A stretch of DNA of 64,000 nucleotides, from assembly GCA_034435035.1 (NCBI GenBank), contig DAOTXW010000081.1:72580-136579 (forward strand), written 5' to 3'. Both the position numbers and the translations under genes were made by a program. Origin of the DNA: Anaerolineae bacterium. Lineage in GTDB: Bacteria > Chloroflexota > Anaerolineae > Aggregatilineales > UBA3940. Positions 15,267-64,000 of the stretch are shown here, piece after piece. The notes below the pieces were generated by a model. The model searched no databases, was not told where the DNA came from, and was given only the letters and a program-made list of their open reading frames with translations. Numbering within the stretch: the first letter of the stretch is position 1; each line of letters opens with the position of its first letter.

Positions 15267-18227
15267 TCAGGGCTCCAGCAGCAGACCCTCCAGCAGGATG
15301 CGATCGTCAATGGCCGTGCCGCCGGCATCGACCACCGGCAGCCGGGTGTTGGTCGCCAGCAGGTACACGCCGATCTCAAGCTGATAGGAGCCGGGCGGGG
15401 CATCCGCATCCAGCGGTACAGCATACCGATCGCTGATGCGCTCACCAGGCGGCCAGGTGGAGGTAGGGTAGGTTCCCTGCACCGGCCAGGCATCGATCTG
15501 CCCGTGCACCCGGCCGTCGGGGCCCAGCAGATGCACGAAGACGGTATAGTCCTGATCCATCCGGGCCAGCCCCTGCCATGTCAGGGTGACCTCCACGATC
15601 TGGCCCGGCTGCAGCCTGCCGGCTTCAAAGCTGACAGCTTCCAGCAGCATCCGGTTGTCGAAGTTGGCGATGGCCTGGGCTGTGGCGCTTCCGGCCAGCG
15701 TGGTGCGGGCCAGCTCACAGCGATCGCGCAGCGGCTGGAGCCAGCCGCAGCGGAGCGGCCCACCTGCGATCTGCCAGATCACCACCGCGGGATCGCCCTC
15801 ACCGCGGGCAGCGGCCAACCGTGCCGGGCTGCCGGGCAGCTCGCCGCCCGAGACGGCATCTCCGGTCCACGCTGCCGCTACCTCGCGATCCAGCTCCGGG
15901 GTCCGCCAGCCCGCCGACAGCCGGATCACGCCGCCCTCCGGCGCACGCTCCGGGGCCTGCGTGAACAGCAGCACGCCGCCCGGCGCCGCGATGGACGACC
16001 GCCGGCCCCGGGACTCCAGCCGCCCGCCTGGCAGCACCACTTCCAGGGCGGCTGCCGTCGCCCACTCTGACCCATCTCTCAGCAGGATGCTGTCCGGCGA
16101 GAAAGGCGGCCCCAGCCCCACTTGCAGGCGGTAGCTGCCCGGGGGCAGCCACCCCGGCACGGGGATGGCCGTGAAGTCAGGGATGATCTCGCCGTCTTTC
16201 CATGCCACCGGCGGGTACCGCCCACTGACAGGGTAGGCTGGCTGTCCCTGCCAGACGACCTGCCCATCGGCATCAACCAGCCGCTGTCGCATGTGAACGT
16301 TATCGGTCAGGCCGGCAGCCCCCTGCCAGTAGAGGGTGACCCATGCATCCTCGCCGGCGAGGACCGGAGCGGCGGGCAGTTCAGCGCCCAGCAGAACGAT
16401 CCCGTTCTGCCATTCCGCCGGCGTGCCCGACAGGTCAGGGACGACCCGCAGCGGCGCAGCGCTCACTTCCACCAGCGGCCCCATTGCGCGCAGATGGTAG
16501 GTTCCCTCCAGCCCCGGCAGGAAGCGGGCCAGGTATACCGTCTGCCCGGCCGCCAGCCGCTCCCGCAGGTCAACCTGATACTCGGCCTCTGTGCCCAGCA
16601 CCACCACCTCGATATCCGGCCGCAGCCCCTCGATGCGGTGCAGGTATTCCAGGGGGGCCACCTTCTCGCTGTCAGCCAGAATCGCGGCGTCGGCATCCAG
16701 CGGCAGCGCCAGCACGCGCCGCCCCCACGCCTCCAGCGCCTGCTCGTCCGACCAGTCAAACGTGGGGCCGGTCGTCCACACTGCCTGCAGCGGCAGCCAT
16801 GCCAGAAGCGTCAGGGCCGCCGCCTGCAGCCACAACGAGAGCGCCTTCGGGCTGCGCCGTGACATCAGCTCGATCAGCACGCCCGCAGCATAGCCAATCC
16901 AGATCGCCTGCAGTAAAAACAGCGGGATCAGGAAGACTCCGATATCCGGTACCAGGTAGTTCAGGCCATAGAAGAAGTATGCGGCAAACGCCAGCGCCAT
17001 CACCAGCGCCGCCTGCCAGCGGCGTGCCGCCAGCAGAGCCAGCCCGCAAGCGGATGCAATCAGGCCCGGCCAGCCCATCTGCGCCAGCAGCAGCCGCGCC
17101 ACGATCCGCCAGCGTTCTGGATCATCCAGCCAGGCTCGCATCTGCAATGCGCCGCTGAAGCGGCTGCCGCTCACCCAGCCGATGAACTCATCGGGACGCA
17201 TCAGGCGTCCATCGTGCAAGGCCGGCCAGCGCAGCGGAATATACAGGTACACCAGCAGCCCGGCGATCAGAGCACCACCGGCCAGCGCCCACTGGCGCAG
17301 CGTCAGGCGCTGATGCGCCAGCGCCACGGCCACTGCCGGCAGCAGCAGCACCGTCGTGAGGTGGTTGGTGAGGCTCAGCCCGATCAGCCCACCCAGCAGG
17401 ATCACGCGCTGCGGGGAACTGCCGCCGGCGAGCAGGCTCAGGCTCAAGCCCAGAATGGCCGCTGCAAAGGCGTTGTGAAGCGCGTACACTTCGGCGATTA
17501 CCGCCTGGCTCCAGAAGATGGGGCTAAACGCAAAGGTCAGTGCCGCCAGGCCGGCGGGGATCGGTTCGATGCCCAGGATGCAGCGCAGAACCAGATACAG
17601 GGCAATCACGGCCGCTGCCGCGGCGGCAGCCGAGGTCGTGTTGACGGCCACTGCCGCGCTCCCCGGGATAGCCAGACTGAACAGCTTTCCGAGCAGGATG
17701 TACAGCGGGTAGCCGGTCGGGTGAGCCACGCCCAACACCGGGGCCGTTACCTGAAACTCGAAGGTATCCGCGCGGCCGATGGTGCGCTGGAGCGTGATCA
17801 GGTAGGCTGCCAGTGTCGTCGCGCCCACCAGCGCCGCCTCCCGGCGCGCCTGCCGATGAGAGAGCCAATCAGCAGGAGGCAGCGCCAGCGCCGCGCTCAG
17901 CGCCAGCGCTCCGCCGATCAGAATGGCGCCGCGCAGCGGGTTGACGGCATCGGGTGGGGCCAGCAGGTACGGCCAGATCAGGACAGCCGGCAGCAGCGAG
18001 GCGAGCGGCAGGTGGCGGCGGAGCAGTTCCACCAGTGCCCCCAAGACCGCTCCGGCAGCCGCTAACGCCAGCACCACTCCGGGTGCGCCCAGCCCGGCGA
18101 AGCGCAGCGGGGCAGCCTCATAGAGCAGGCGGGAAAGCCCGGCGGCCAGCGTGCCGCCGGCCAGCGCAGCGGCCAGAGTCTCACCAGCCCGGCGGAACCA
18201 GCTCGCAGCGCGGGCGCCAGGTTTCAT
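15267..18227 (-). CDS. DUF2723/TMEM260-like GT-C-fold membrane glycosyltransferase with an N-terminal TM extension and two copies of a C-terminal beta-rich module
   Basis: GRADTFEFQVTAPVLGVAHPTGYPLYILLGKLFS matches the DUF2723 signature (D/E..E/F...LGxAHPxGYPLY). More than 12 predicted TM segments. C-terminal modules occur around aa 640-740 and 875-986. ATGA overlap with the mrdA stop at 18224-18227. Confidence 0.75.
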   Translation of the reverse strand: MKPGARAASWFRRAGETLAAALAGGTLAAGLSRLLYEAAPLRFAGLGAPGVVLALAAAGAVLGALVELLRRHLPLASLLPAVLIWPYLLAPPDAVNPLRGAILIGGALALSAALALPPADWLSHRQARREAALVGATTLAAYLITLQRTIGRADTFEFQVTAPVLGVAHPTGYPLYILLGKLFSLAIPGSAAVAVNTTSAAAAAAAVIALYLVLRCILGIEPIPAGLAALTFAFSPIFWSQAVIAEVYALHNAFAAAILGLSLSLLAGGSSPQRVILLGGLIGLSLTNHLTTVLLLPAVAVALAHQRLTLRQWALAGGALIAGLLVYLYIPLRWPALHDGRLMRPDEFIGWVSGSRFSGALQMRAWLDDPERWRIVARLLLAQMGWPGLIASACGLALLAARRWQAALVMALAFAAYFFYGLNYLVPDIGVFLIPLFLLQAIWIGYAAGVLIELMSRRSPKALSLWLQAAALTLLAWLPLQAVWTTGPTFDWSDEQALEAWGRRVLALPLDADAAILADSEKVAPLEYLHRIEGLRPDIEVVVLGTEAEYQVDLRERLAAGQTVYLARFLPGLEGTYHLRAMGPLVEVSAAPLRVVPDLSGTPAEWQNGIVLLGAELPAAPVLAGEDAWVTLYWQGAAGLTDNVHMRQRLVDADGQVVWQGQPAYPVSGRYPPVAWKDGEIIPDFTAIPVPGWLPPGSYRLQVGLGPPFSPDSILLRDGSEWATAAALEVVLPGGRLESRGRRSSIAAPGGVLLFTQAPERAPEGGVIRLSAGWRTPELDREVAAAWTGDAVSGGELPGSPARLAAARGEGDPAVVIWQIAGGPLRCGWLQPLRDRCELARTTLAGSATAQAIANFDNRMLLEAVSFEAGRLQPGQIVEVTLTWQGLARMDQDYTVFVHLLGPDGRVHGQIDAWPVQGTYPTSTWPPGERISDRYAVPLDADAPPGSYQLEIGVYLLATNTRLPVVDAGGTAIDDRILLEGLLLEP

Positions 18228-21782: not shown

Positions 21783-21888
21783 CCCTCACCCGGCCCATAA
21801 ACCAAATGGGCGTGATCCCTGGGCATGGTGGCAGGAATCACCCCCTCGATGTCGGCGCTGTGGGATCCGGCGCGCGCTTGCGCCCGGA

Positions 21889-22950: not shown

Positions 22951-23007
22951 AAAGTGAGCTCCTGGGGTTATCTCCCTGAAAGGCTTGCCAGGGCATACCA
23001 GCGGCGG

Positions 23008-23036
23008 ATTATACCATTCGCCTACCTCACCTGCAA
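23008..23036 (-). promoter_or_regulatory. Sigma-A-type promoter of mreB
   Basis: Minus strand reads TTGCAG, 17 nt, TATAAT (-35 at 23036..23031, -10 at 23013..23008). Confidence 0.55.
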
Positions 23037-23244
23037 TCGACCGGCACCCGGGGGTGCATTTCAAGACAATGGATAATGGACGGCCAGGGAGCGCGTGATG
23101 GAGCCTCGCCCTTACCACCGGGCTGCGTCCGATCCCTCTCCGCGCAGCCTGGCAGCATTCTCGCCACGCCAGCGGAGACAGGCAAGGGTCGATGGGCCGG
23201 CCGCCCGCCTGACATGCACCCGTACCCGGTGAATACCAGGAGCC

Positions 23245-32311: not shown

Positions 32312-32349
32312 GCGATCTTGAGCAGCAGTGTGCCAGGGAGAGAGTCAGC

Positions 32350-35040
32350 ATGCAAATCCGTTTTGTGGAAGCTCCTAACAATTTCTATATCGGCGCATCC
32401 GCCGATCCCCAGACCGGCGATATCTTCGAAGATCTGCCGATCTACTATGATGCCCGTCACCTGACCACACACGGGGTGATCCTGGGCATGACGGGCAGCG
32501 GCAAGACCGGCCTCGGCATCACCCTGATCGAGGAGGCGGTCATCGATAAGATCCCCACCATCATCATCGATCCCAAAGGGGATATCACCAATATCCTGCT
32601 GGCCTTCCCGGACCTGACCGCCGAGAACTTCCGCCCCTGGGTGCACCCCGAGACTCCCCAGTCGATCGACGAGGATGCCCGCCGGGCCGCGACTGTCTGG
32701 CGCGAGGGCCTTTCCGAGTGGGGCATCACGAACGACCGCATCCAGGAATTCCGCCGGGCCGCAAAGTTCAGCATCTACACCCCCGGCTCGGAAGCCGGCC
32801 TGCAGGTCAGCATTCTGCAGTCCTTCGCGGTTCCGCGCGAAGGGTGGGCCGGCAACGAGGAACAGCTGCGCGAGCGCATCACCGGCATGGTCACGGCGCT
32901 GCTGGCCCTGATCGGCATCGATGCGCAGCCCGTTGAGGATCGCGAGCATATCCTGCTGTCGAATATCTTTGAATACAACTGGCGGAACGGCGTGGATCTG
33001 TCGATGGAGCAGCTGATCCTCCAGGTGCAGCGCCCCCCGTTTACCAAGCTGGGCGTGTTTGATGTCGAGACGCTGTTCCCTGAGAAAGATCGCTTCAAGC
33101 TGGCTCAGAAGCTCAACAACATCATTGCCGCGCCCAACTTCCAGAACTGGATCAAGGGCGAGCCGCTGGACGTGGGCGCATTGCTGTCCACCGCTGAGGG
33201 CTACCCACGCACTACGATCTTCTACCTGGCTCACCTCAACGATGTTGAGCGCCAGTTCATCATCACCCTGCTGCTGCAGAGTGTGCTGGCCTGGATGCGC
33301 GCCCAGACCGGCTCCACCAGCCTGCGCGCCCTCATCTACATCGATGAGGTGTTCGGCATGTTCCCACCCTATCCGCGCAACCCGCCTACTAAAGAGCCTA
33401 TCATGCGGCTGCTCAAGCAGGCGCGTGCCTATGGCATCGGGATGCTGGTCGCCACGCAGAACCCCGCTGATCTGGACTATAAGGGCCTGTCCAACGCCGG
33501 GACGTGGTTCATCGGCAAGATGCAGACGGATAATGACAAGAATCGGGTGCTGGAGGGGCTGGACAGCGCCCGCGACGCCTCGTCCGGGCTGGATATCCGC
33601 GTCGTCGGCGATCAGCTCAACCGGCTCAGGCCGCGCCAGTTCATCCTGCATGATGTGCATGAGCAGAATACACCGATCCTGATGACGACCCGCTGGACCA
33701 TGTCATACCTGCGCGGCCCGCTGACCCGTGAAGAGGTCGCTCGCCTGATGCAGAACCAGCGGGCGGCAGCGCAGGCGGCAGCACCGCCGCCGGCTCATCC
33801 CAGCTACTTTGCGGCAGCCCCTGCGCCGGACAGCGGCCCGTTCAGCGCAGCCTCGCCCACCTACAGCGGCCGCGATCCCTCTGGCCCGGCCTTCCCCGGT
33901 GGCGGCGGCGGCGGCGAAGCCCCGCCGGTGTATGGCGCGCCCGCAGGCAGCCTGCCGCCCTCGGAGCGCCCTGCTCCGCCCGGCTTCTCAGCGGTCCAGC
34001 CTGTCATCCCCAGTGCGGTGCAGCAGTACTTCCTGCCCACCGAGTACGCCGTTGAACAGGCCATCAAGCACTGGGAACAGCGGATGGGTCAGCCGGCGAT
34101 CGACGTGCAGACGAATAAACGCCTGCTCTACCGTCCCTCCCTGCTGGCGCAGCTCCAGGTGCGCTTCAACCATACACCAACCAGCTCATCCGAGATACTC
34201 TGGTACGCCTTCGTGGTGCCCAACCTGCCCACCATGACCTACCTGGACTGGTCAGAATACCAGTCTGAACCCTTCGACCCGCGCTCGCTCGACCGCGAGC
34301 CCTTCGTCCGCCCCTACTACGGCGAAGTGCCGCAGTCGCTCAGCAAAGGCGCCGGCTTCAAGGAGCTGCAGGCCAGCCTGGTAGACTGGGTGTACAACAA
34401 TGCCCGGATGGTCGTCCTGCAGAACCCGACGCTCAAGATGACCAGCGCCCTGGGAGAAAGCCGCCGGGACTTCGTGGCCCGGGTTCGCCAGGCGGCCCGC
34501 GAAGCGCGCGACGCCGAACTGGACGCACTCACCGATAAATATCAGCGCAAGCTCCAGGCGCTGGAGGACCGCTACCAGACAAAGGCTATGCGCCTGGACT
34601 CCCATCGCGCTGAGGTCGAGGGACGCCGGCAGGAGGAACTGGTTACGGGCGCCGAAGCTGTCATGCGGCTGATGAAGGGCAGCGTCTACAACACCATCTC
34701 CAAGTCCAGCCGCCTGCGCCGCATGACCAGCCAGTCCGAAGATCGGCAGCAACTGATGGAACAGGAGCTGGCAGACATCACAGAACAGATGGAAACCTAC
34801 GAAAACGAACTCAGGGACCGGCTGGCCGAACTGGCAGAGAAGTGGAAAGACATTGCCAACCAGATCGTTGAAGTGCCCATCGCGCCGCTGAAGAAGGATA
34901 TCAGCTTCGTGCTGTTCGGGATCGGCTGGGTGCCGTACTGGGATGTGGTCGTCAATGGCAGCCCGCTGATTCTGCCTGCTTCGTCGTCCGGCCTGACACA
35001 GGCGCAGGATCCCGGCTCCGGCGGAGGCGGCTACTACTAA
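32350..35040 (+). CDS. HerA/FtsK-superfamily P-loop ATPase (DUF87/DUF853-like) with Pro/Gly-rich linker and ~370-aa coiled-coil C-terminal region
   Basis: HGVILGMTGSGKTGLGITLIEE...IIIDPKGDITN (Walker A plus the KGD motif typical of this clade), Walker B ALIYIDEVF, and VATQNPADLDYKGLSNAGTWFIGKMQTDNDK. Low complexity at about nt 33763-34030. Heptad-like C-terminal part. Confidence 0.7.
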   Translation: MQIRFVEAPNNFYIGASADPQTGDIFEDLPIYYDARHLTTHGVILGMTGSGKTGLGITLIEEAVIDKIPTIIIDPKGDITNILLAFPDLTAENFRPWVHPETPQSIDEDARRAATVWREGLSEWGITNDRIQEFRRAAKFSIYTPGSEAGLQVSILQSFAVPREGWAGNEEQLRERITGMVTALLALIGIDAQPVEDREHILLSNIFEYNWRNGVDLSMEQLILQVQRPPFTKLGVFDVETLFPEKDRFKLAQKLNNIIAAPNFQNWIKGEPLDVGALLSTAEGYPRTTIFYLAHLNDVERQFIITLLLQSVLAWMRAQTGSTSLRALIYIDEVFGMFPPYPRNPPTKEPIMRLLKQARAYGIGMLVATQNPADLDYKGLSNAGTWFIGKMQTDNDKNRVLEGLDSARDASSGLDIRVVGDQLNRLRPRQFILHDVHEQNTPILMTTRWTMSYLRGPLTREEVARLMQNQRAAAQAAAPPPAHPSYFAAAPAPDSGPFSAASPTYSGRDPSGPAFPGGGGGGEAPPVYGAPAGSLPPSERPAPPGFSAVQPVIPSAVQQYFLPTEYAVEQAIKHWEQRMGQPAIDVQTNKRLLYRPSLLAQLQVRFNHTPTSSSEILWYAFVVPNLPTMTYLDWSEYQSEPFDPRSLDREPFVRPYYGEVPQSLSKGAGFKELQASLVDWVYNNARMVVLQNPTLKMTSALGESRRDFVARVRQAAREARDAELDALTDKYQRKLQALEDRYQTKAMRLDSHRAEVEGRRQEELVTGAEAVMRLMKGSVYNTISKSSRLRRMTSQSEDRQQLMEQELADITEQMETYENELRDRLAELAEKWKDIANQIVEVPIAPLKKDISFVLFGIGWVPYWDVVVNGSPLILPASSSGLTQAQDPGSGGGGYY

Positions 35041-53182: not shown

Positions 53183-54043
<861 letters not shown>

Positions 54044-54051
54044 ACATTCCC

Positions 54052-54489
54052 ATGGTGGACTATCCGGCCGGCCTGCGCCAGATTCTTGAGGACTTCGCTG
54101 GCATCAGCGATCGGAATGAGCGGGCAGAACTGCTCATCCACTACAGCGACCGGTTCCAGCCGGTCCCTTCCTCCATCGCGACACGCCCATTCGGGGAGGA
54201 GCACCGGGTGCAGGCCTGCGAATCGGATGCCTATGTATGGGCCAGCCCGCAGCCTGACGGCACGCTCAAGTTCTATTTCGCTGTAGAGAACCCGCAGGGG
54301 CTGTCGGCCAGGGCGCTGGCGGCGATCCTGGACGAAGCGCTGTCCGGTGCGCCGCTGCCGCAGGTGGCCGCTGTCTCACCGGAGATCGTTTTCACCCTGT
54401 TCGGGCGCGACATCTCGATGGGCAAGGGCGCCGGGCTGACCAGTATGGTCAGTCTGGTAACCGCGCTGGCCCGCCAGCAGATGCCTTAA
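54052..54489 (+). CDS. sufE: SufE-like sulfur acceptor protein
   Basis: DRNERAELLIHYSDRF, the active Cys context VQACESDAYVW, and DGTLKFYFAVENPQGL. The start was moved to ATG 54052. Confidence 0.75.
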   Translation: MVDYPAGLRQILEDFAGISDRNERAELLIHYSDRFQPVPSSIATRPFGEEHRVQACESDAYVWASPQPDGTLKFYFAVENPQGLSARALAAILDEALSGAPLPQVAAVSPEIVFTLFGRDISMGKGAGLTSMVSLVTALARQQMP

Positions 54490-54494
54490 GCACA

Positions 54495-57400
54495 CTACGG
54501 CGCGAAGGGGATCTCCACAAAGTCGCCGCCGGGCGGGTTGACTACAGTCAGGCGGATTGAAGTCTGTGGATCATAGATACCGATGCGCAGCGTGTAAGGG
54601 CCGGGCGGCGCATCGGCTGGTAGCGTGATGTCGTGCGTCTGCGCAATGAAGTCACCTGCTCGCCAGCCTGTTGAGGGCGCCCCCAGCCCGTCGCTCTGGG
54701 CCAGCATGGCGCTGTTTCCATCCAGCAGGTGCAGGAAGATACGCAGCGGAACGGGCGTCGGCCCGTCGGCTATCCAGGTCGTCAGCAGCGTGAAAGACTG
54801 GCCCGGCCCCCCGACTCCGAACGCCTCCACCCCGAGGAGCGTGGCAGCCGCGCTCGTCTGGCCGGGCAGCGCAAAACCGTATTCCTGCCCCCCGCTGTCC
54901 CTGGACGGCAGATCGCCGGCGCTGACGCGGTAGCGCGTGTAACTGCTGTGGGCAGCCTCCGGCATGATGCCCCAGCCGGGCATCTGCGCAGCCAGCGCCG
55001 GATGCAGCCCGGCAAAGGCCGGGATCGCCAGCTCCGCCGCGCCATCGAAACTGGCAGCAGGCACCAGCAGCGCGGTGTGCGGGTCAAAGAAGCTCAGCGA
55101 TCGCGCATAAACGTCATCATTCATCATCAGCAGCAGCGTGCCGGGATCCATCAGATACGGGGTGACGCCCCCCACGGCGACCGGAGGACGGTCCGGGCGG
55201 GCGTCGAGATCGGCAGCCAGCGGCACATAGTCCGATTGGTACCAGAAACGCACGGCGGGATCCGCAGGCCAGAGCGTGAAGTAGTGCAGAGCAGTGTTCT
55301 GCAGCTGGTGCACCAGACCCAGCGCCGCCACCAGCCCCACCGAGATCGCCAGCCGCAGATGCCCGGACTGTCGCAGCGCTCCCATCAGGCTGTCCACGGC
55401 GATGGCCGGGAAAATATAGGCGATTCCGAGCAGACCGATGGTGCGCGAGGGGTTCAGCGCTCGCTGGGTCACCAGTGTCGGGACGAGCATCGCCGCCAGC
55501 CAGATCAGCGCCAGCGCATAACCCTCCCGGCGCGGGCTGCCCCGCTGGAAAAGCCCGCCCAGGGCGATCAGCAGCCCGATGTAGAACAGCGCCGCCAGAA
55601 TCAGCGTCGGGAAGACGGGCAATGCCGCATTATTCACATCGATCCCCGGGTCGCCCCGGACGGTGAACATCCCCATCACGGGCAGCACATTGGCCAGCGC
55701 CGGGCCCGGATCGCCGGCCCGCAGGGCCTCCAGCGGCGCATCCACCGCCGCCGCCCTGGCAGCGGCCTGCGGGTCGGCCCAGGATCGCGCCAGTGGGATG
55801 CACAGGATCGCCGCCAGCAGGAAGCTGGCAGCCAGCCCGGGCCATTTGCCTGCCAGCCGGTCGCGCTGCAGCAGAGCCGCGGCTGCCACCCACAGCAGCA
55901 GGATGAGCGGCAGCATCAACGCCGCCGGATAGGTGTGCAGCGCCAGTGCCAGCATCGCCCCGGCGGCAGCGTAGAGCCAGGGCGGGGGCCGCCGGCTGTC
56001 CAGCAGCCGCGCAAACAGATAGGCGGCCAGCAGGGCCATGACCGGTGCGCTGCCGGTCCGTTCCCCCAGGCGCGAGAACGTCAGCGCCCAGTAAGAAGTC
56101 GTGATGCCGGCAGCGGCCATCAGAGCGGCCGGCCTGCCAAACAGCCGCCGCGTCAGGCTGAAGGTAGCCGCCACCCCGATCATGCCCAGCGCCAGCGCGG
56201 GCAGCCGCGACCCCAGGATATTCGTGCCGATCAGCCGGAAAGTCGCCGCGACCAGGATCTGGTACAGCGCCTCGCGCCCCCCGCCATACGGGTACAGCGC
56301 CCGGAGTTCTCCCCGGTAGATCATCTCGGCGTTGTACCAGTCGAAGACCTCATCATGGCTCACTCCCGGCGGCGATGCGCTGAAATGCGCGCTCCGCAGG
56401 GCGAAAGCGCCTACCAGCAGCGCCGTGACAGCCGCCCATTCCCAGCCGCTCAGCCGCCTGGCCCGCCTTCGAGATACCGCAGGCTCCGGAGGCCGGTGCA
56501 GCGCCCAGCCCGCGGCCGCGGCCAGCGACGCCGCCCACAACCAGGCCAGCGCGATCAGCCAGCCGCCGTCAGGCCCGATCACACGGGTGGCGTGCGCGTC
56601 CTCCGGGCTGGCGGCGTAGACCCAGAAGAAGTCCACTCCGTCGATCCGCACCACGAGCTGGGGAGGCTGCCCACTGAGCTCGTCCCAGCGCGGGCGCCAC
56701 TCATGCTGCTCCAGCTCCCGCTGGAACGCCGACAGATTGAACACGTAGTATTCGGAATCCCGGCGCAGGTCGCGCACCACTTCGCCGGCGAAAAAATCTC
56801 CCAGATAGATGTTCAGCGGCCAGCCAGCCCCGACTGTCAGCCGTCGGGGTTGCGGCTGCTGGTTCAGGTAATCGATGACGTAGTTCGCGCCCTCCGTCTC
56901 ACCCACCAGCTCGATCACCGTCACCGCCACCCGGTTGCCCCCCACCAGCGCGTTGTGATGGGCGCTGAAGTTCGGCGCGTAGTTCAGGGCAGTGGCTGCC
57001 TGCAGCAGCAGGGCAGCAGCCATCATACCGGCTGGGGTCAGGCGAGCGAGTCTCCCCCCGGCGGGCAGCCGCGACTGCAGCAGCGATGCCAGGCTGGCGG
57101 CGCCGGCAGCCGCCAGCACCTCCAGCATGACATGGGTGGGCAGCAGATAGCGATCAAACTGCTTGGCCCCGATGCTCATCTGCACTGTGAAGAAGAAGGC
57201 GTATGCCGCCAGCAGCCAGAAGATCAGCGGCGGCAGCGGTGGCTTGAAGCGGCGCGGGACGAACAGATACAGGCCTGCTGCCGCCGCGCTTAACGTCAGC
57301 GTGACGGCCGTCATGTTGAACAGCAGCGTGGCCGGGTAAAAAAGGATCGGCGGGCGCTGGCCGGCGTAATACTGGCCGGCGAAGAAACGCGCCAGCCCAT

Positions 57401-58250
57401 GCCCCCGGGCAACATGCTCGCCCGCCCCGCTGACGATGCTCTGCAGCACCAGGCCGGGCTGCACCCACATCGCCGGCCACAGCGCCAGCGGCAGCGCAGC
57501 CATGCCGATCCACTGGAGCAGCGGCAGGACGATCGCCCGGGCGGCCACGCCTGCCAGCCAGCGAGCGCGCCCCTGCGCGCGATCAGTCCATTCCGCCCGA
57601 ACCCGGACACTGGCCGCGGCCAGCAGCGTCAGACCGGCAAAGGGCAGCAGGAACAGGGAAGGCACCTTCGTCAGGATCGCCAGCCCACCAACCAGACCAG
57701 ACAGCAGCAGGTCACCCCGCTGCCGGCTGTGAGCATGGTTCAGGATCAGCAGCCCGGAACACAGCATCAGCGATGCGGCCAGCGCATCCACATGCAGCAC
57801 GCGCCCCTGCGCAGCATAGAAGGGTGAGAAGGCCATCAGCCCGCCGGCCGTCAGTCCCAGCGGCCACCCGCCGAGCCGCACCAGCAGCCGGGTATTGAGG
57901 ACGATCAGGCCGGCGATCACCAGTGCCAGACCCAGGATTGAGGCGCTGATCTCGCGCCCGGTTCGAGTGGCATCCGGTCGGGCTGCCCAGTCAAACAGAG
58001 CGCCGGCCGCTGTCCCTCGTGTGGCCTCGAACAGCGCCAGCGAGCCACCTCCAATGGCCATCACGGTGAATCCGGGGTGGCGCGACTGGTAGGTGCTGGC
58101 CCAGTCCTGCCCGGCGACGGCCTCCACGAAGGCACGGCTGCGGCGGTGCCACTGGCGTGGACGCTCCACCGGCTGGTAGGCGCGAATCAGAAAGGCGATC
58201 AGGTACAGTGCGATCAGCGCCAGGGCAGAGACGCGGCGAGAGCGGATCAT
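54495..58250 (-). CDS. 1251-aa two-module polytopic membrane protein: an N-terminal module paralogous to the 58247..60049 product, fused to an ArnT/PMT-like GT-C module with a C-terminal beta-rich module
   Basis: aa 1 to ~585 are collinear with the neighbouring 600-aa protein (e.g. YQSRHPGFTVMAIGG vs YQSRHPGVTGMVIGG, GGLMAFSPFYAAQGRVLHVDAL vs GGLMAFSPFYLAQGRVFHLDAL). The junction is near nt 56480 (GWALHRPPEPAVSRRRARR). Module 2 has the first-loop motif SPPGVSHDEVFDWYN. The C-terminal module spans 54495-54803. Confidence 0.7.
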   Translation of the reverse strand: MIRSRRVSALALIALYLIAFLIRAYQPVERPRQWHRRSRAFVEAVAGQDWASTYQSRHPGFTVMAIGGGSLALFEATRGTAAGALFDWAARPDATRTGREISASILGLALVIAGLIVLNTRLLVRLGGWPLGLTAGGLMAFSPFYAAQGRVLHVDALAASLMLCSGLLILNHAHSRQRGDLLLSGLVGGLAILTKVPSLFLLPFAGLTLLAAASVRVRAEWTDRAQGRARWLAGVAARAIVLPLLQWIGMAALPLALWPAMWVQPGLVLQSIVSGAGEHVARGHGLARFFAGQYYAGQRPPILFYPATLLFNMTAVTLTLSAAAAGLYLFVPRRFKPPLPPLIFWLLAAYAFFFTVQMSIGAKQFDRYLLPTHVMLEVLAAAGAASLASLLQSRLPAGGRLARLTPAGMMAAALLLQAATALNYAPNFSAHHNALVGGNRVAVTVIELVGETEGANYVIDYLNQQPQPRRLTVGAGWPLNIYLGDFFAGEVVRDLRRDSEYYVFNLSAFQRELEQHEWRPRWDELSGQPPQLVVRIDGVDFFWVYAASPEDAHATRVIGPDGGWLIALAWLWAASLAAAAGWALHRPPEPAVSRRRARRLSGWEWAAVTALLVGAFALRSAHFSASPPGVSHDEVFDWYNAEMIYRGELRALYPYGGGREALYQILVAATFRLIGTNILGSRLPALALGMIGVAATFSLTRRLFGRPAALMAAAGITTSYWALTFSRLGERTGSAPVMALLAAYLFARLLDSRRPPPWLYAAAGAMLALALHTYPAALMLPLILLLWVAAAALLQRDRLAGKWPGLAASFLLAAILCIPLARSWADPQAAARAAAVDAPLEALRAGDPGPALANVLPVMGMFTVRGDPGIDVNNAALPVFPTLILAALFYIGLLIALGGLFQRGSPRREGYALALIWLAAMLVPTLVTQRALNPSRTIGLLGIAYIFPAIAVDSLMGALRQSGHLRLAISVGLVAALGLVHQLQNTALHYFTLWPADPAVRFWYQSDYVPLAADLDARPDRPPVAVGGVTPYLMDPGTLLLMMNDDVYARSLSFFDPHTALLVPAASFDGAAELAIPAFAGLHPALAAQMPGWGIMPEAAHSSYTRYRVSAGDLPSRDSGGQEYGFALPGQTSAAATLLGVEAFGVGGPGQSFTLLTTWIADGPTPVPLRIFLHLLDGNSAMLAQSDGLGAPSTGWRAGDFIAQTHDITLPADAPPGPYTLRIGIYDPQTSIRLTVVNPPGGDFVEIPFAP

Positions 58251-60049
58251 GCCGGCTCCTGTTCAGGGGTTCTGGATGCCCACCAGCTGGCCGCCGCGAC
58301 AGCCGCGATCCATGCCCAGGCCAGGATGATGAGCAGCGGGCCACCCCGGTTGATCACGATGGTCTCCTGATCGGCAGGCGGCGGGCTGGCATACAGCCAC
58401 GCCTGCTCCACCCCGTCGAACGCCACCACCAGCGCTGGCGGGCGATCCAGATAGCGCCGGTCGATCTGCTCTGGCTGGCGCTGCACCGCAGAGAGGTTGA
58501 AGGCATAGAAGTCCACTACCTCCGGGCCGGTTGTGACAGCGCCGCCGAAGTACTGGTTGAGCGACTCGTCCAGCGGGGCCACCACGCCGACGCGAAGGGC
58601 CTCCGGGTCTGGCTGCCGATTCAGATAAGCGGCGATGTCTGCCACTCCCTCATTCTGGCCCATCAGTTCCACCACACCCCGCGCCCCGCGCCCCCCGCCC
58701 AGCAGGGCATTGTAGTGCGATCCATAGTAGGGAGCATAGGGCAGAACGGCGGCCATCTGCAGAGCCACGACCAGCCCGCAGATGACGGCCATGGCCCGAT
58801 CGGCAGGCCAGCGCACCCTCCGGGCGATCATCGCAGCGAACTCGACGGCGCCGGCGGCGGCGATGACCTCCAGGGGCAGGTAGCCGGGCAGGATGTAGCG
58901 GTCGCTCTGCTTGGCCCCCAGCATCATCTGCAGCGTGAAGAAGAAGACGTAAGCCGCCAGCAGCCAGAAGGCCCGCCCGCTCAGCGACGCTCCGCCCCGC
59001 CGCCACCCATACCGGATCGCCCCCACCACCCCCAGACTCAGCGTCACAAACGACATCTTGAACAGCAGGATCGTTGGGTAGAGCAGCGGGCTGGGGCGGG
59101 CGCCCTGTACGATCTGCCCGGCGAAGAAGCGCCCGCCGGGATGCGGGCGCAGCAGGTGGATCAGCGCTCCGTAATACATGTTGCCGAGCGCCGTGACAGG
59201 TTCCACCCACATAACGGGCCAGAGGGCATGCGGGAGGGCAGCCATCAGCCCCCACAGCAGGCCCGGACGCACCACCCCCCGCCAGCCCAGCCCCGCCAGC
59301 CACCGCGCTCGCCTGCCGCTGTGCCTCCCCCACCCCGCCCGCACCTCCGGCAGCACCCCCACCCCCAGCACCAGCCCCACATACGGCAGCAGAAACACGC
59401 TCGGACTTTTCGTCAGCAGCGCCAGACCCCCCAGCACCCCCGACCCCGCCAGCCACCCCGGCACACGCCTCCCCCCGCTGCCTTCCTCCACATGCACCAG
59501 CAGCATCAGCCCTGACGCCAGCATCAGCGACGCCACCAGCGCATCCAGGTGAAACACCCGCCCCTGCGCCAGATAGAACGGCGAGAACGCCATCAGCCCG
59601 CCGCTCACCACCCCCACCCACCGGCCTCCCAGCTTCCCCACCAGCCATGCATTCAGCACAATCAGCCCCGCCACCACCACCGACAGCCCCAGCACCCCCG
59701 CCGCGATCCGACGCCCCCGCTCCGTCGCCCCCGGCGCCGCCCCCCACTCAAATACCCACCCCCACCTCGTCCCTGCCACCGCATCATACGCCCGCAGACT
59801 CAACCCCCCGATCACCATCCCCGTCACCCCGGGATGCCGCGACTGGTACGTCTCCCCCCACTCCCTCCTCTCCACCGCTTCCATGAATAACTCCGACCGC
59901 TCGTACCACTGCGGCGGCCGCGACACCGGCCGGTACCCCCTCACCACCAGACTCACCCCGAACACTACCCCCAGCATCACCCCATACACCAGACGGCCCC
60001 GACGAATGGCAGAACCCCCGGCAGGCATAGAGGCCGATAAGATTGTCAT
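58247..60049 (-). CDS. 600-aa polytopic membrane protein (GT-C-like module, no C-terminal beta-rich module)
   Basis: More than 10 hydrophobic segments. Paralog of the N-module of the downstream gene. ATGA overlaps at both ends (58247-58250, 60046-60049). Confidence 0.65.
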   Translation of the reverse strand: MTILSASMPAGGSAIRRGRLVYGVMLGVVFGVSLVVRGYRPVSRPPQWYERSELFMEAVERREWGETYQSRHPGVTGMVIGGLSLRAYDAVAGTRWGWVFEWGAAPGATERGRRIAAGVLGLSVVVAGLIVLNAWLVGKLGGRWVGVVSGGLMAFSPFYLAQGRVFHLDALVASLMLASGLMLLVHVEEGSGGRRVPGWLAGSGVLGGLALLTKSPSVFLLPYVGLVLGVGVLPEVRAGWGRHSGRRARWLAGLGWRGVVRPGLLWGLMAALPHALWPVMWVEPVTALGNMYYGALIHLLRPHPGGRFFAGQIVQGARPSPLLYPTILLFKMSFVTLSLGVVGAIRYGWRRGGASLSGRAFWLLAAYVFFFTLQMMLGAKQSDRYILPGYLPLEVIAAAGAVEFAAMIARRVRWPADRAMAVICGLVVALQMAAVLPYAPYYGSHYNALLGGGRGARGVVELMGQNEGVADIAAYLNRQPDPEALRVGVVAPLDESLNQYFGGAVTTGPEVVDFYAFNLSAVQRQPEQIDRRYLDRPPALVVAFDGVEQAWLYASPPPADQETIVINRGGPLLIILAWAWIAAVAAASWWASRTPEQEPA

Positions 60050-62274
60050 GGTTCCACCACCCGAATTGTGTTCAGCGCCAGCCAGTTGTCGATGATGTGC
60101 CCATCTTCAGCTACGATGTTTAACCGCTCCCCGCTGCGATCGGAGAACCAGCCCAGCTCAAGCGTGTAGATCCCCGGCGGCATGTTATCCGGCAGCTGGA
60201 TGCGCCTCCGGTCAACGATCACCTGCCCGGGGATCCAATCCGTCGTCGAGGCGTCCGGTTCCCCCGGGTTGCCATCATTGCCGGCCCACTGCCTGTCCCA
60301 TCCCTGCGTGATGTGCAGAAAGACCTTGTAGGACTCATCCTGCGGCGGATCGAGCGCCTGCCAGTACAGCTTGACCGTCGTTCGCTTGCCAGCCCGTACT
60401 ACCCGCGGCTCGATGGTGTAGCCCACCAGCGCAAAATGGCCATCCCAGTTGATGAATGTCTGGTTCGGGTAGTCGGCCTCCGGATTGTCCGGTATCCGCA
60501 CCCGGCCAAACACCAGCGCATCGTCACCCTCCTCGCCGACCGGCAGCCGGGTCCCATCGCTATCATACAACCCGATCTCGACGGCAAATCGATCAGGAGA
60601 GTAAGCTGTGCCCGGCAGGTAGATGCGGTAGGTCTCGGTGAAGATGTGCCCCGGCCGCCACCAGTGCGAGGGGTAGTTGCCCAGGCCGGTGTATGTGTCC
60701 CGCTGCGCGACCATCGCGCCATCCGGGTTCACCAGGTGGATGAACACTGAGTAGGGGCGGTCGGTGGGCCGCAAGATTTCCCAGGTGACGGTCACACTAA
60801 CCGGCTCGCCCGGGCGGACCGTTTCCGGTTCGGCACGCACCGCCAGGATGCGGGCAGCGTCTCCGACCTCTATGTTCAGCGAATCGGGCGGCGCTGCCTC
60901 ATGGCCGGGCAGCGCGTAGGCCGGGATCAGGTACCCGATCAGCGCGGCCAGCGCACAGGCAACCATCCCGGCGCAGACCGCCCCCGCCGCGGCCGGCTGC
61001 CAGCGGATCGGCAGCGCGCCGGGCAGACCGGCTGCCACCAGCACGGCAAAGGCGGGCAGACCGGGGAAGAAGAAGCGCCCCATCGCCCCGGCCGGGCTGA
61101 CGGTGATATAGGCATACAATACAGCAAAGTTGATCATCATCGCTGCGGCCAGCACCGCCAGCGCGCGCCGCCGGGGCGCGTCGAAATCCCCGCGGGCAGC
61201 GCGGATCGCCAGACCCACCAGTCCAGCCCCACACAGCGCGGCACTGGCGATATAGAAGGACGCCGGGACCGGAATCTGCCCGTAGCCAAAGCGTGCCCAC
61301 AGGCTTGTCCAGGCATATACCAGTTCGCGCCCGGCCAATTGCACCCCGGCCACCGGGTCGCGGAAGCCCCAGATCTCCGTCAGCCGGAAGAAGCCGGTTG
61401 GCTCCCCATACAGGATCGTGTTGCGGACGTACCACCAACCAGCGATGACAGCAGTGGCACCTGCGATGATCCCCACGGCGCGCAGCAGGGCTCCCCGGCG
61501 GCTGCGCCAGCCCGGCGCGGAGTCGGCAGGCAGCGGGGCCAGTGCCAGCGCCAGCCCGATGACCGCCAGCATAGCCACCAGGTTAAACTTCACCAGCGCC
61601 GCCGCGCCGGACAGCGTCCCCAGCAGCACCGCCCGCCTCTGCGTCAGGCCAGCCTGAACCACCTGCACACAGACCAGCGCGAGCGCCGCGCCCATCAGCC
61701 CGGCGGGCACATCGTTGTTGACCGCCCCGCCCAGATAGAGGAACATCGGGTTGAACGCCACCAGGCCGCCCGCTGCCAGTTCCACCGCCGGCCGGTCGGG
61801 AGCCAGCAACCGCGCCGTGAGCGCGGTCAGCGCGACAGCCCCCGCCCCCCACAGCACGGTGACCCAGCGGGCCAGATGGGCCGCCAGCGCGGCATCCCGG
61901 TAAGGCCAGGCTTCATCCGGCCCGTGCAGGTAGAGGTTCTTGTTATCGGTCCCAACCTCCCAGTTTCGATATGACCACTGCGGGTTGGTCGGCGGTTCAG
62001 CCAGCGGGTCGGCCGGGCGCGCCCAGAAGCTCAGCAGAGCAGCGGTCGCGTAATAGAGGGGCGGATGATGCGCCTGTGCGTTGCCCGCATCGCCGGACTG
62101 GACCGGCAGCCGTCTATAATCAGCCAGGTAGCGCACATAGCGGTAGTGCCGCAGCTCATCGGTTGCCTCATGGATCGGGTTGGCGATGCTGTAGGCCGCC
62201 GCCAGAATAACGTAAGCCAGCGCCAGCAGCGTGGGCAGCGGATCCGATCGCAGGGAGCGGAACAGGTGCATCAT
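60046..62274 (-). CDS. 742-aa ArnT/PMT-like GT-C membrane glycosyltransferase with two tandem C-terminal beta-rich modules
   Basis: First-loop motif PIHEATDELRHYRYVRYL and about 11 TM segments. C-terminal modules lie at roughly 60391-60810 and 60046-60390. Confidence 0.7.
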   Translation of the reverse strand: MMHLFRSLRSDPLPTLLALAYVILAAAYSIANPIHEATDELRHYRYVRYLADYRRLPVQSGDAGNAQAHHPPLYYATAALLSFWARPADPLAEPPTNPQWSYRNWEVGTDNKNLYLHGPDEAWPYRDAALAAHLARWVTVLWGAGAVALTALTARLLAPDRPAVELAAGGLVAFNPMFLYLGGAVNNDVPAGLMGAALALVCVQVVQAGLTQRRAVLLGTLSGAAALVKFNLVAMLAVIGLALALAPLPADSAPGWRSRRGALLRAVGIIAGATAVIAGWWYVRNTILYGEPTGFFRLTEIWGFRDPVAGVQLAGRELVYAWTSLWARFGYGQIPVPASFYIASAALCGAGLVGLAIRAARGDFDAPRRRALAVLAAAMMINFAVLYAYITVSPAGAMGRFFFPGLPAFAVLVAAGLPGALPIRWQPAAAGAVCAGMVACALAALIGYLIPAYALPGHEAAPPDSLNIEVGDAARILAVRAEPETVRPGEPVSVTVTWEILRPTDRPYSVFIHLVNPDGAMVAQRDTYTGLGNYPSHWWRPGHIFTETYRIYLPGTAYSPDRFAVEIGLYDSDGTRLPVGEEGDDALVFGRVRIPDNPEADYPNQTFINWDGHFALVGYTIEPRVVRAGKRTTVKLYWQALDPPQDESYKVFLHITQGWDRQWAGNDGNPGEPDASTTDWIPGQVIVDRRRIQLPDNMPPGIYTLELGWFSDRSGERLNIVAEDGHIIDNWLALNTIRVVEP

Positions 62275-64000
62275 GGGCGGGCGATCGTGATCTCAGCCAG
62301 GGTGATGCCATCCCCCAGCGGGCTGCCATCCGGAGCGATCACCGGCAGCCGGGCCAGAGTATCGGCGTCATACATCCCGATCCGCAGCGTGTACTGCCCC
62401 GGGGCGGCATCCGGCGGGATGGGGATCGGCCACTCATCCCAGTCGAAGTACCCCGGCAGCCAGTCATAGGTACGGTGCAGCGCATCGCCCGGTGGGCCAT
62501 CCAGCTGGGCGACCGGCTCCCCTGCCGGCGGCAGCAGGTGTGCATAGACGATGAAGTTGGCATCAGTCTCCCTCAGGGCCGACCAGTACAGCGTCAGCGC
62601 CAGTGTCTCGCCGGGAACGACAACCGCTGAGGGTAGATCATAGCCTTTGAAGATCACTGCCTCGCCCAGAAAGACATGCATCGGGTGCTGCTGGATCGGC
62701 GGCACGTGAAACACATAGCGCTCCGGCCCCTGCCATCCCCGATCCCACGGGCGGGTCAGATCGAGCACAGTTTCAACTTCGCTCAGAAACGCCCGGCTGT
62801 CATTTTCCGGGGCAAAGTAGCCGCCCCGGTAGATGTTCCGATAGTCCGCGACCAGATACTCTACCCCGGCACGGGCGAAGTCTTCCAGGCTGCGTTCATA
62901 GACCGAATCGATCTCTTCGACTACATAAATGCGCGTGCTGGGGAAACCGCCAAAGTTGCGATCAAACTCCACGTGATCCTTCTCGACCGCGATGTGCGTC
63001 CCTTCCGGCGTGCTGGCGATGAACCAGTCGGCGGTCAGGGCGCGGGTATCCGGCAGCATCATTTCGCTGCCTGCCCGCCAGTTCGCACCGATCCAGGGAA
63101 GAGTCAGCGCCAGCGCCGCCGCCAGCGTGAGCACAGGCCGCTGTCCGATCAGCAGGCCGAGCGCCAGCCCCCACAGGAGCGCAAACGCCAGCACCGCCAC
63201 GTAGCGATCCTGCACCCGGTTGGTCTGGAACAGCCCCAGCAGCACCACCGTGCTGACCATCACCGCCGTCAGCAGCCCGATCAGCGCCCACCGGATTCCC
63301 GGCAGGCGATCTCGCCGCCGGCCCAGCGCACCCAGCGGGATGGCGATCAGCGTGCCCCACAGATTCAATGGGCCGATCTGAGCCAGCAGCCCGTGCCACC
63401 CGCTCCGCAGCGAGACAAACGCCACGATCGACTCGCGCTCATACAGCTGCCGGCCGTGGAAGCGCATCAGGAAACCCGCCACCACCGACTCGCGGTCCAG
63501 CACCAGCAGGATCCCGCCCACCGCGGCCGCGGCCAGCGCGCCCAGCGCTGCCGCCCGCCAGAGAGACCGGCGCGGCGCCCAGGCCGCCAGCAGGAAGGCC
63601 GGCAGCAGCAGCAGCGGCAGCATCGTGTATTTGTTGTACACAGCAACGGCCCCGGCGAGGGCCGCCAGCAGCAGCGGGGTGCGCCGTCCGGCGCGCAGCG
63701 CATAGGCGCAGCCCAGCAGACACAGCATCCCCAGCAGCCATGACAGGTTATCCGTCTTGAGTGTCTTGGCAAAGGTAACTGCATCGGGCTGGGCCGCCAG
63801 GAAGGTCATCGCTGCCAGGCCAGCAGCGCGGCTGTGCAGCCACCTCCCAGCCTGGTAGGTGGCAGCCAGCAGCAGCAACCCGATCCATACATTCGACACG
63901 CGCCCAAAGAAGAAATAGACCGGCTGGTCCACTTGGCCGGGAGTGACCAGGTTGAGCAGGATGTGCTGCCCGGTGAGCAGGATAATGCGGGGGCGCGAGT
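62271..64000 (-). CDS. ArnT/PMT_2-like GT-C membrane glycosyltransferase with C-terminal beta-rich module; 5' end beyond window
   Basis: The frame stays open upstream of the track's GTG 63932 to nt 64000 (…RPRIILLTGQHILLNLVTPGQVDQPVYFFFGR…). The hydrophobic core is typical of the family. C-terminal module at 62271-62612. ATGA overlap with the next gene. Confidence 0.7.
   Translation of the reverse strand, partial: SRPRIILLTGQHILLNLVTPGQVDQPVYFFFGRVSNVWIGLLLLAATYQAGRWLHSRAAGLAAMTFLAAQPDAVTFAKTLKTDNLSWLLGMLCLLGCAYALRAGRRTPLLLAALAGAVAVYNKYTMLPLLLLPAFLLAAWAPRRSLWRAAALGALAAAAVGGILLVLDRESVVAGFLMRFHGRQLYERESIVAFVSLRSGWHGLLAQIGPLNLWGTLIAIPLGALGRRRDRLPGIRWALIGLLTAVMVSTVVLLGLFQTNRVQDRYVAVLAFALLWGLALGLLIGQRPVLTLAAALALTLPWIGANWRAGSEMMLPDTRALTADWFIASTPEGTHIAVEKDHVEFDRNFGGFPSTRIYVVEEIDSVYERSLEDFARAGVEYLVADYRNIYRGGYFAPENDSRAFLSEVETVLDLTRPWDRGWQGPERYVFHVPPIQQHPMHVFLGEAVIFKGYDLPSAVVVPGETLALTLYWSALRETDANFIVYAHLLPPAGEPVAQLDGPPGDALHRTYDWLPGYFDWDEWPIPIPPDAAPGQYTLRIGMYDADTLARLPVIAPDGSPLGDGITLAEITIARP

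Follow-up and report, generated by a model that had tools for sequence, protein, structure and literature searches.

A four-gene array of GT-C membrane proteins at the 3' end of a co-directional gene run in an Anaerolineae bacterium

Four genes and five GT-C modules

We analysed a window of 64,000 nucleotides from an uncultured Anaerolineae bacterium of the phylum Chloroflexota (contig DAOTXW010000081.1, positions 72,580 to 136,579), the far end of which carries four head-to-tail genes for polytopic membrane proteins with the C-type glycosyltransferase (GT-C) fold. The genes are named P1 to P4 here, and "SR clade" refers to P2 and its close relatives, in which a Ser-Arg motif or its equivalent stands at the place of an acidic Asp-Glu (DE) pair in the first extracytoplasmic loop (loop 1). 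PMT stands for protein O-mannosyltransferase and Ig for immunoglobulin. The genes and their junctions are the following.

54495..58250, minus strand: P1, 1251 residues, a fusion of two GT-C modules, the first SR-clade and the second PMT_2, with an Ig-like domain
58247..60049, minus strand: P2, 600 residues, an SR-clade GT-C protein with no acidic pair in loop 1
60046..62274, minus strand: P3, 742 residues, a conserved core GT-C protein with the PMT-like motifs TDExxH and HHPPLYY and two C-terminal Ig-like domains
62271..64000 (partial in the window), minus strand: P4, a GT-C protein with a C-terminal Ig-like domain, 652 residues when complete
62271..62274, minus strand: ATGA overlap of the P4 stop and the P3 start
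60046..60049, minus strand: ATGA overlap of the P3 stop and the P2 start
58247..58250, minus strand: ATGA overlap of the P2 stop and the P1 start

An earlier note, made from the letters of the window, had placed four minus-strand genes at these positions, and the list of open reading frames and their translations match it exactly. The three ATGA junctions are read directly in the sequence as TCAT on the plus strand, and a GC content at third codon positions (GC3) of 0.81–0.84 marks the P1–P4 frames as coding. The fourth gene runs off the window, as described. An exact look-up of P3 identified an extending contig (CAYVJV010000001.1, assembly GCA_964451875.1; labelled L009) that overlaps the window by 4026 bases without a single mismatch (100% identity). 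P4 is complete on this contig and starts 229 nt past base 64000, the equivalent of window position 64229. Further array members, which the earlier note had considered possible there, were not found: none is recognised upstream of P4, and the adjoining gene encodes an unrelated membrane protein of 360 residues, rejected as a sixth GT-C protein with an hhalign probability of 0.7%. The count of four genes stands, with five rather than four GT-C modules distributed over them, since P1 is a two-module fusion.

A sequence scan of 54000-64000 gave no promoter-like or terminator-like sites above shuffled expectation. Same-strand neighbours with a 4-nt overlap are frequent in this genome (8 of 36 pairs), and the ATGA overlaps are thus the sign of an ordinary tight operon and nothing special.

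The GT-C fold (GT-C_A type) that the earlier note had assigned to all four proteins is supported for P4, P3, P2 and both modules of P1 (P1N and P1C). In Pfam, P1 (63.0 bits) and P2 (33.4 bits) score above the gathering cut-off of PMT_2 (PF13231; 26.1 bits), the P1 match (4.9e-17) covering residues 666-818 in P1C, whereas P3 and P4 fall just below the respective thresholds. The best Pfam model for P3 is PMT (PF02366), with 21.4 bits against a cut-off of 22.7, and P4 reaches ~22 bits with PMT_2. Precomputed matches to PF13231 or PF02366 are found on many P3 orthologs. An AlphaFold (AF2) model of P2, calculated with 30 homologs as input (pLDDT 91.9, pTM 0.93), contains an alpha/beta extracytoplasmic domain at about residues 440-568, followed by the last transmembrane helix. 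In Foldseek every PDB match of this model at E<=0.001 is a GT-C protein: STT3, ArnT, Pmt4, AglB, ALG9, DPY19, AftA and EmbA/B, with E values of 4e-8 to 5e-7 for STT3, ArnT and Pmt4 and with ArnT as the second-best match. Profile–profile comparison links the P3 family to the P2 family (hhalign probability 99.9%, E 9e-36) and P4 to the P3 family (99.5%, E 3e-22). The word paralogs, used in the earlier note, is apt for P2 and the first ~590 residues of P1, the only close pair in BLASTP with 48% identity; the membrane domains of P1C, P3 and P4 lack pairwise BLASTP similarity and are related at profile level only.

Assignment to a known family is a different matter. A sequence search of all PDB chains with P1, P3 and P4 gave no match at E<=1, and the P2-family profile weakly found Pmt4 and Pmt2 and nothing else. 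The NCBIfam scan of P1–P3 gave no family at E<=0.1, and P4 matched Agl23 and LIC_10190 weakly, far under cut-off. No MIR domain, a mark of the GT39 protein O-mannosyltransferases, was matched in any of P1–P4 at E<=0.1, and neither P1–P4 nor the TMEM260-like protein described below contains a WWD motif. Membership in the oligosaccharyltransferases (STT3/PglB/AglB) was rejected on the missing WWDxG motif, STT3 being a fold-level match only, and membership in ArnT (GT83) was rejected as none of the ArnT family models in NCBIfam matched.

Every member of the array that bears the DE pair also carries C-terminal Ig-like domains: one in P4, two in P3 and one in P1C.

60049..60912, minus strand: P3 C-terminal region, residues 455-742, two tandem Ig/fibronectin type III (FnIII)-like beta-sandwiches
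62274..62681, minus strand: P4 C-terminal Ig-like domain, a homolog of the P3 domains (BLASTP 30-31% identity, and hhalign)
54498..54863, minus strand: P1 C-terminal Ig-like domain, a homolog of the P3 and P4 domains (BLASTP 30-37% identity)

The AF2 model of the P3 tandem has a pLDDT of 95.7, and its top Foldseek match is RbmA of V. cholerae, a polysaccharide-binding matrix protein (2.6e-7), followed by generic tandem Ig-like domains. The searches pointed to no specific carbohydrate-binding module (CBM) family; apart from RbmA they gave generic tandem Ig/FnIII matches. GT-C enzymes in which C-terminal carbohydrate-binding modules hold the acceptor are established (PMC11127046).

The same C-terminal beta domain occurs on a fifth GT-C protein of the window (15267..18227). 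This 986-residue TMEM260-like/DUF2723 protein (PF11028, 6e-28) has about three copies of it, and its gene ends an mreB-mreC-mreD-PBP2 operon (window 15267-23118, minus strand) to which it is joined by an ATGA overlap (18224-18227). Its slot in the mre operon is the usual position of rodA.

Loop-1 motifs, the SR clade and the P1 fusion

The five modules differ in loop 1, where the catalytic acids of GT-C enzymes are expected.

62155..62160, minus strand: P3 loop-1 D39-E40, putatively the catalytic pair, without exception among 30 family members
56349..56357, minus strand: P1C loop-1 H632-D633-E634, kept in the ortholog at locus L007 and in the protein P0297
59918..59923, minus strand: P2 S43-R44, within one residue (register ambiguity) of the Asp-Glu site in DE-bearing relatives
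58161..58166, minus strand: P1N E29-R30, the equivalent of P2 S43-R44

Both acidic motifs had been pointed out in the earlier note, and their conservation in the 30 P3-family members and in the two P1C orthologs bears this out. In the P3 family, H43, HHPPLYY, DNK, NND, K229 and RFGYGQ are invariant along with D39-E40. P4 has its own pair, D57-E58, outside the window, which is invariant in three orthologs as part of LPYQLxPDEP. The corresponding segments of P2 (PVSRPPQW) and P1N (PVERPRQW) contain no acidic pair.

A search of 1.84 billion representatives gave 420 relatives at E<=1e-30, the best 150 of which were scored for loop-1 acids. An acidic pair just ahead of the conserved Trp is present in 79, and 11 are fragments; the pair is absent, or replaced by a scattered acid only, in 61 of the 140 scorable representatives. 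The acid-less type accounts for all 40 scorable proteins among the 45 best matches, and the more distant relatives have DE. Within the SR clade PVSRPxQW is strongly conserved, together with W48, R51, H72-P73-G74, H167, D169, K214, R384-Y385 and E467-G468. Because the replacement motif and so many loop residues are kept, the site looks reshaped rather than decaying. The SR modules of P2 and P1N are most likely retooled or accessory partners of a DE-bearing GT-C protein.

SR-type genes occur in several arrangements: in tandems of four (L002) and two (L003), and beside P3 or P1C-like genes (L011, L022, L025). The tandem at L002 (10001-17340, JGI metagenome 3300017971) comprises four consecutive paralogs of 614, 598, 589 and 609 residues with a mutual identity of 55-64%, flanked by unrelated housekeeping genes and with no DE-type GT-C gene nearby. 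The genome under study itself has a lone third SR-type paralog, P0004, which is 46% identical to P2 (L006 9992-11830, contig 18 of GCA_964451875.1). Since SR-type genes thus occur without any DE-type neighbour, these proteins arguably can function on their own. Ancient orthologous pairs were rejected as the source of the tandem copies: copies at one locus resemble each other more than they resemble those at other loci, which indicates that SR duplication is recurrent and lineage-specific.

P1 joins an SR module and a DE-bearing module in one chain.

56478..58250, minus strand: P1N module, residues 1-591, the P2 paralog with 48% identity and loop-1 PVERPRQW
54495..56477, minus strand: P1C module, residues 592-1251, a PMT_2 GT-C module with loop-1 H632-D633-E634
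56436..56477, minus strand: fusion joint, a basic Arg-rich linker, VSRRRARRLSGWEW

Residues 592-1247 of P1 are 55% identical to a stand-alone gene of 664 residues that follows the P3 ortholog at L007. At L011 the second P2-like gene and P1C are separate, with a GTGA stop/start overlap at the point that matches the fusion joint. An assembly artefact behind the 1251-residue P1 was rejected: exactly the same protein is found in two assemblies, and P0297, a protein of 1256 residues from another organism, keeps the P1 architecture with 51% identity over the full length. In topological terms the fusion would be sensible, since the C-terminal transmembrane helix of a P2-type protein is predicted to place the C-terminus on the same side of the membrane as the start of the next module, and in the modelled topology the Arg-rich linker fits a cytoplasmic loop between the last transmembrane helix of P1N and the first of P1C. 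The conserved P1N::P1C fusion argues that the two module types act side by side in the membrane, and it is the sole indication of physical pairing in the array. In P0302 (1136 residues) and P0333 (1502 residues) an SR-type module is fused to a large C-terminal membrane region of another kind, with Ig-like repeats, which suggests that fusion of an SR-type module to a second membrane module is recurrent.

A more drastic interpretation is that P2 and P1N are dead pseudo-glycosyltransferases that scaffold or chaperone the catalytic GT-C modules. The lack of the acidic pair in 61 of 140 scorable representatives, including all 40 closest scorable ones, when distant relatives have DE would agree with this, as would the two lineages in which such a module is fused to a DE-bearing one, and P0302 and P0333, where its fusion partners are other large membrane modules. 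However, PVSRPxQW and the other loop residues are conserved as in a working site, and SR-type genes are found alone and in pure SR-type tandems. We regard this pseudo-enzyme interpretation as unlikely. Either way, the SR clade is a coherent GT-C clade without the canonical catalytic acids, repeatedly tandem-duplicated and fused to other membrane modules, and as such it offers a direct way to ask if GT-C enzymes may be retooled or become partner subunits.

The upstream gene run and the relatives of the array

A second look-up extended the view of the identical contig 10 kb further upstream. It reveals a co-directional run of 16 genes over ~22 kb, joined by overlaps or short gaps, with P4-P3-P2-P1 at its 3' end. 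The order is APS kinase (adenosine 5'-phosphosulfate kinase), a glycosyltransferase of family GT2 (301 residues), a sulfotransferase, a GT4 protein, a second GT2 protein (337 residues), a sulfotransferase, a Polysacc_synt protein (Wzx-like, of the MOP type), a sulfotransferase, a third GT2 protein (306 residues), a type I phosphodiesterase-family protein, two familyless proteins (336 and 360 residues), and then P4, P3, P2 and P1. Convergent SufE and rhodanese genes flank the array downstream. The APS kinase (L009 5359-5907) scores above its NCBIfam cut-off, and the family searches identified three Sulfotransfer_3 proteins. Three genes of this run are located as follows.

L009 5917-6822 (outside the window): polyprenyl-phosphate-sugar synthase, a 301-residue GT2 protein of the GtrB/ArnC/AglJ type
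L009 15828-17917: the two genes upstream of P4, for a 336-residue soluble protein and a 360-residue membrane protein with ~6 hydrophobic segments

The 301-residue GT2 protein has two C-terminal transmembrane helices, and its structure matches are full length, including the transmembrane region (ArnC 1e-15, archaeal dolichyl-phosphate-mannose (Dol-P-Man) synthase DPMS 8e-15, GtrB 3e-9). Its best five NCBIfam matches are all polyprenyl-phosphate glycosyl synthases (AglJ, PpgS, Dol-P-hexose transferase, PgfS and ArnC). AglJ is the top one with 1.4e-35, far under its equivalog cut-off, and the ArnC model gives 63 bits against a cut-off of 529. The membrane-anchored 337-residue GT2 protein was rejected as a second lipid-sugar synthase, its match being limited to the N-terminal GT2 core. 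The flippase candidate is the 455-residue Polysacc_synt protein (MOP/Wzx-like, 1.6e-13); no GtrA-like gene was seen in the operon. The earlier note had found neither a synthase nor a flippase; the synthase and the flippase candidate are present 5-14 kb upstream of the array in the same gene run, just past the window edge. It had also held that the donor could not be deduced. Because synthase and flippase sit in one co-directional run with the array, the donor class would be a polyprenyl-monophosphate sugar. The 336- and 360-residue proteins have no Pfam, NCBIfam or PDB match, and the latter could be a candidate for a missing polymerase or ligase.

P3 is the conserved core of the array. It has more than 565 full-length homologs with 43-67% identity, and all source names given are Chloroflexota lineages. 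A scan with one genome per species found P3 relatives in 263 stretches, which puts the family in at least 263 species of Chloroflexota; the best 80 of the stretches belong nearly all to Anaerolineae, Anaerolineales, Ardenticatenaceae, Promineifilaceae, Thermoflexales or other Chloroflexota by title. Runs were counted at the 38 P3 loci with at least 8 kb on both flanks. P3 lies in a contiguous same-strand run of at least two GT-C genes at 23 of these, of at least three at 16 and of at least five at 6, with a maximum of seven. The commonest junction in the GT-C runs of the relatives is again the 4-nt overlap (26 of 58). The gene content varies: APS kinase-P3 followed by SufE-rhodanese in L008, L017 and L074; P3-P1C in L007 and L012-L015; P4-P3-P1C in L018; and P4-P3-P2like-P2like-P1C in L011, with sulfotransferase and GT2 genes upstream. 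Another variant is L005 (3151-16996, JGI metagenome 3300009431), in which a run of membrane proteins of 540, 885, 152, 714 and 751 residues is followed by a 1020-residue TMEM260_N protein and then by a Wzy_C protein; its 714-residue member is a P2 relative, and L005 thus represents a GT-C array with a polymerase- or ligase-like gene. Because content varies in this way among the closest relatives, the array is a locally elaborated form, with P3 at its centre, of a feature that is widespread in Chloroflexota. Literature searches on GT-C/GT39 arrays in Chloroflexi, on inactive GT-C paralogs and on sulfotransferase clusters in Anaerolineae turned up no account of such arrays, of the SR clade or of the link to sulfotransferases.

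The same variation bears on the role proposed in the earlier note, which saw a stoichiometrically coupled envelope glycosylation machine. The envelope role is plausible; a fixed multi-subunit machine is unsupported. In its strict form, P1–P4 would be one obligate stoichiometric GT-C complex in which the ATGA overlaps set equal amounts. This would be in keeping with three consecutive 4-nt overlaps and no internal promoter- or terminator-like sites above chance, with the 4-nt overlap as the modal junction in the relatives (26 of 58), with the fusion of one module-type pair in two lineages, and with the known GT-C pairs Pmt1-Pmt2 and EmbA-EmbB, both complexes being among the P2 fold matches. However, the partners are not conserved, as P3 is found alone, with P1C, with P4 and P1C, or with 5-7 other GT-C genes; 4-nt overlaps are generic in the genome (8 of 36 pairs); and each DE-bearing member has its own Ig-like domain, as autonomous enzymes would. 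One obligate complex is disfavoured by the varying make-up and appears very unlikely to us, and the variable content fits a modular accretion of separate transferases.

Comparison of the loci also suggests where the upstream genes entered. In L008, L017 and L074 (about 9400-12250) the P3 ortholog directly follows APS kinase, and in the genome of the window the two are separated by what appears to be an insertion of ~12.6 kb with 12 genes, the synthase being the first and P4 the last. The frame on the other side of P3, SufE-rhodanese(-PIG-L), is conserved. The GT-C genes could then be unrelated to the upstream block, with P3 (with or without P1C) as a housekeeping envelope enzyme next to which a mobile glycan cassette has landed. 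The direct APS kinase-P3 neighbourhood at three loci, the recurrence of P3(-P1C) | SufE-rhodanese-PIG-L without the cassette, and the presence of the cassette only here and in L011 speak for such a coincidence. Yet the whole stretch from APS kinase to P1 runs in one direction, its genes overlapping or separated by very short gaps, P4 and SR-type genes accompany the cassette in L011, and GT-C enzymes need a lipid-linked donor, for one of which the cassette supplies the synthase. On balance we consider an unrelated cassette rather improbable.

The families matched by the operon proteins raise the question of the acceptor. The array might consist of protein glycosyltransferases, related to PMT/TMEM260-like O-mannosylation or to the Agl pathway, that decorate secreted or surface-layer proteins and not a polysaccharide. 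P3 has the PMT-type motifs DE-x-x-H and HPPL and PMT as its best Pfam model, Pmt4 and Pmt2 are the only PDB proteins that the P2-family profile picks up by sequence, and the fifth GT-C protein of the window is TMEM260-like. Agl proteins appear among the NCBIfam matches of the operon GT2 (AglJ at the top), of the GT4 and GT2c proteins (Agl16 and AglG at lower ranks, all far under equivalog cut-offs) and weakly of P4 (Agl23). Against a protein acceptor, there is neither a MIR domain nor a WWD motif in P1–P4, none of the NCBIfam matches comes near its equivalog cut-off, no candidate acceptor protein is encoded in the operon, and the best structural match of the C-terminal domains, though weak, is a polysaccharide-binding protein. 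We judge a pure protein glycosylation array somewhat unlikely.

A further observation in the window has no bearing on the array. At 31055-35040 (plus strand) a two-domain phospholipase D (PLD)-like nuclease, whose best PADLOC matches are DrmC (5e-18), is followed by an 896-residue HerA/FtsK-like ATPase (PADLOC mad8 1.5e-15, HerA 1e-9). By their matches these are possibly an anti-phage defence pair, unrelated to the GT-C genes.

A proposed role in the envelope and known systems

The joint best explanation, to which we assign a probability of about 0.6, is that the four genes are the 3' end of a 16-gene operon, probably for a sulfated envelope glycan or glycoprotein glycan. By analogy with systems of similar make-up, the most likely process is that lipid-linked sugars serve, outside the cytoplasm, to glycosylate an envelope glycan or glycoprotein. 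From the folds, motifs, gene order and synteny we infer the following course. Sugars would be loaded onto polyprenyl phosphate at the cytoplasmic face, where the lipid-linked sugars might also be extended and sulfated, with 3'-phosphoadenosine 5'-phosphosulfate (PAPS) derived from the product of the APS kinase. They would then be flipped to the outer face, and there P4, P3 and P1C would act as separate, successive transferases onto an envelope acceptor held by the Ig-like domains. P3 would be the ancient core enzyme, to which other genes have been added lineage by lineage, and the SR modules P2 and P1N would serve as partners of a DE-bearing GT-C module or be retooled.

Several observations weigh against this explanation. 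Among the relatives compared, the sulfation/GT2 block is limited to this lineage and L011, where it lies between APS kinase and P3, so that the tie between GT-C genes and sulfation could be recent or merely positional. The majority of P3 orthologs lack a neighbouring synthase. The 16-gene run has no match to Bac_transf, Glycos_transf_4 or Wzy_C, that is, to an initiating phosphoglycosyl transferase, a Wzy polymerase or a ligase. Wzx-like flippases usually move diphosphate-linked repeat units and not monophosphate sugars, and the flippase of the operon is Wzx-like. SR-type genes stand alone or in pure SR-type tandems at L002, L003 and L006, away from any DE-type neighbour. Finally, the Ig-like fold match is generic (TM-score ~0.35) and no proof of carbohydrate binding.

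According to published work, Chloroflexota stain Gram-negative and are without genes for lipopolysaccharide (LPS) and BAM; their envelopes are multilayered, with outer layers described as no more than "suggested to be polysaccharide or protein" (PMC13319060). P3, a nearly universal GT-C protein of Anaerolineae, and the recurrent runs of 2-7 GT-C genes around it are candidates for the builders of those layers, and this lineage adds a donor synthase, a candidate flippase and PAPS-dependent sulfotransferases as a complete set. A bolder version of the envelope reading, which we put forward as speculation with more doubt than confidence, is that P3-centred GT-C arrays build the uncharacterised non-lipid outer layers of the Chloroflexota envelope, sulfated in this case, and that the SR clade is an undescribed kind of GT-C protein in which Asp-Glu has given way to a conserved Ser-Arg site. 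Such a protein would either assist a catalytic GT-C enzyme, to which it is fused in some lineages, without being catalytic itself, or apply a changed chemistry to an anionic substrate that bears diphosphate or sulfate.

Among known systems, the PMTs (GT39) provide the best Pfam models (PMT/PMT_2), the only sequence-level PDB matches and the DE-x-x-H and HPPL motifs of P3, and they function as dimers of paralogs such as Pmt1-Pmt2. In contrast to the PMTs, the array has no MIR domain, P3 and P4 stay under the Pfam gathering cut-offs, and P2 and P1N lack the DE pair that is essential in PMTs. Haloarchaeal N-glycosylation (AglJ, AglG, AglR, AglS, AglB) likewise combines a lipid-monophosphate-sugar synthase, GT2/GT4 proteins, a MOP-type flippase and a GT-C enzyme on the outside, and some haloarchaeal N-glycans are sulfated; here, however, the host is bacterial, the matches are far under the equivalog cut-offs and an STT3/AglB-type WWD motif is missing. 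The ArnT/ArnC pathway for lipid A aminoarabinose (GT83 and GT2) is similar in that ArnT is the second-best fold match of P2 and ArnC the best PDB match of the operon synthase. It differs in that the array has no match to an ArnT family model in NCBIfam and that the synthase reaches 63 bits against the ArnC cut-off of 529; moreover, Chloroflexota have no LPS pathway by published accounts (PMC13319060).

The mycobacterial embCAB/Aft proteins (GT53 and relatives) offer a parallel in organisation. There too head-to-tail GT-C paralogs lie in an operon, each with a C-terminal extracytoplasmic domain, which in embCAB/Aft binds carbohydrate; they use a polyprenyl-monophosphate sugar to build a cell-wall polysaccharide, and EmbA and EmbB form a heterodimer. 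There is no sequence-level relationship between the two, the fold matches at a TM-score of ~0.37-0.41, the C-terminal domains are Ig/FnIII-like here, and no genes of a decaprenyl-phosphoarabinose pathway were seen. The array operon also resembles the three-component systems, GtrA/GtrB/Gtr* of Shigella and Salmonella and the Citrobacter set of polyprenyl-phosphoribose synthase, MATE flippase and GT136, in the clustering of a GtrB/ArnC-type synthase, a flippase candidate and GT-C genes. GT136 has an additional extracytoplasmic beta-domain on its GT-C protein, as found here, and in GT136 this is a CBM that binds the acceptor glycan; versions with multiple GT-C genes have been noted and left unexplained (PMC11127046). 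The array operon differs from these systems in having five GT-C modules instead of one, a Wzx/Polysacc_synt-type flippase instead of GtrA or MATE, three sulfotransferases and an APS kinase, two GT-C modules without the acidic pair, and a Chloroflexota host without LPS. None of these findings overturns a known principle, and the system continues to resemble glycosylation from lipid-linked donors on the outer side of the membrane.

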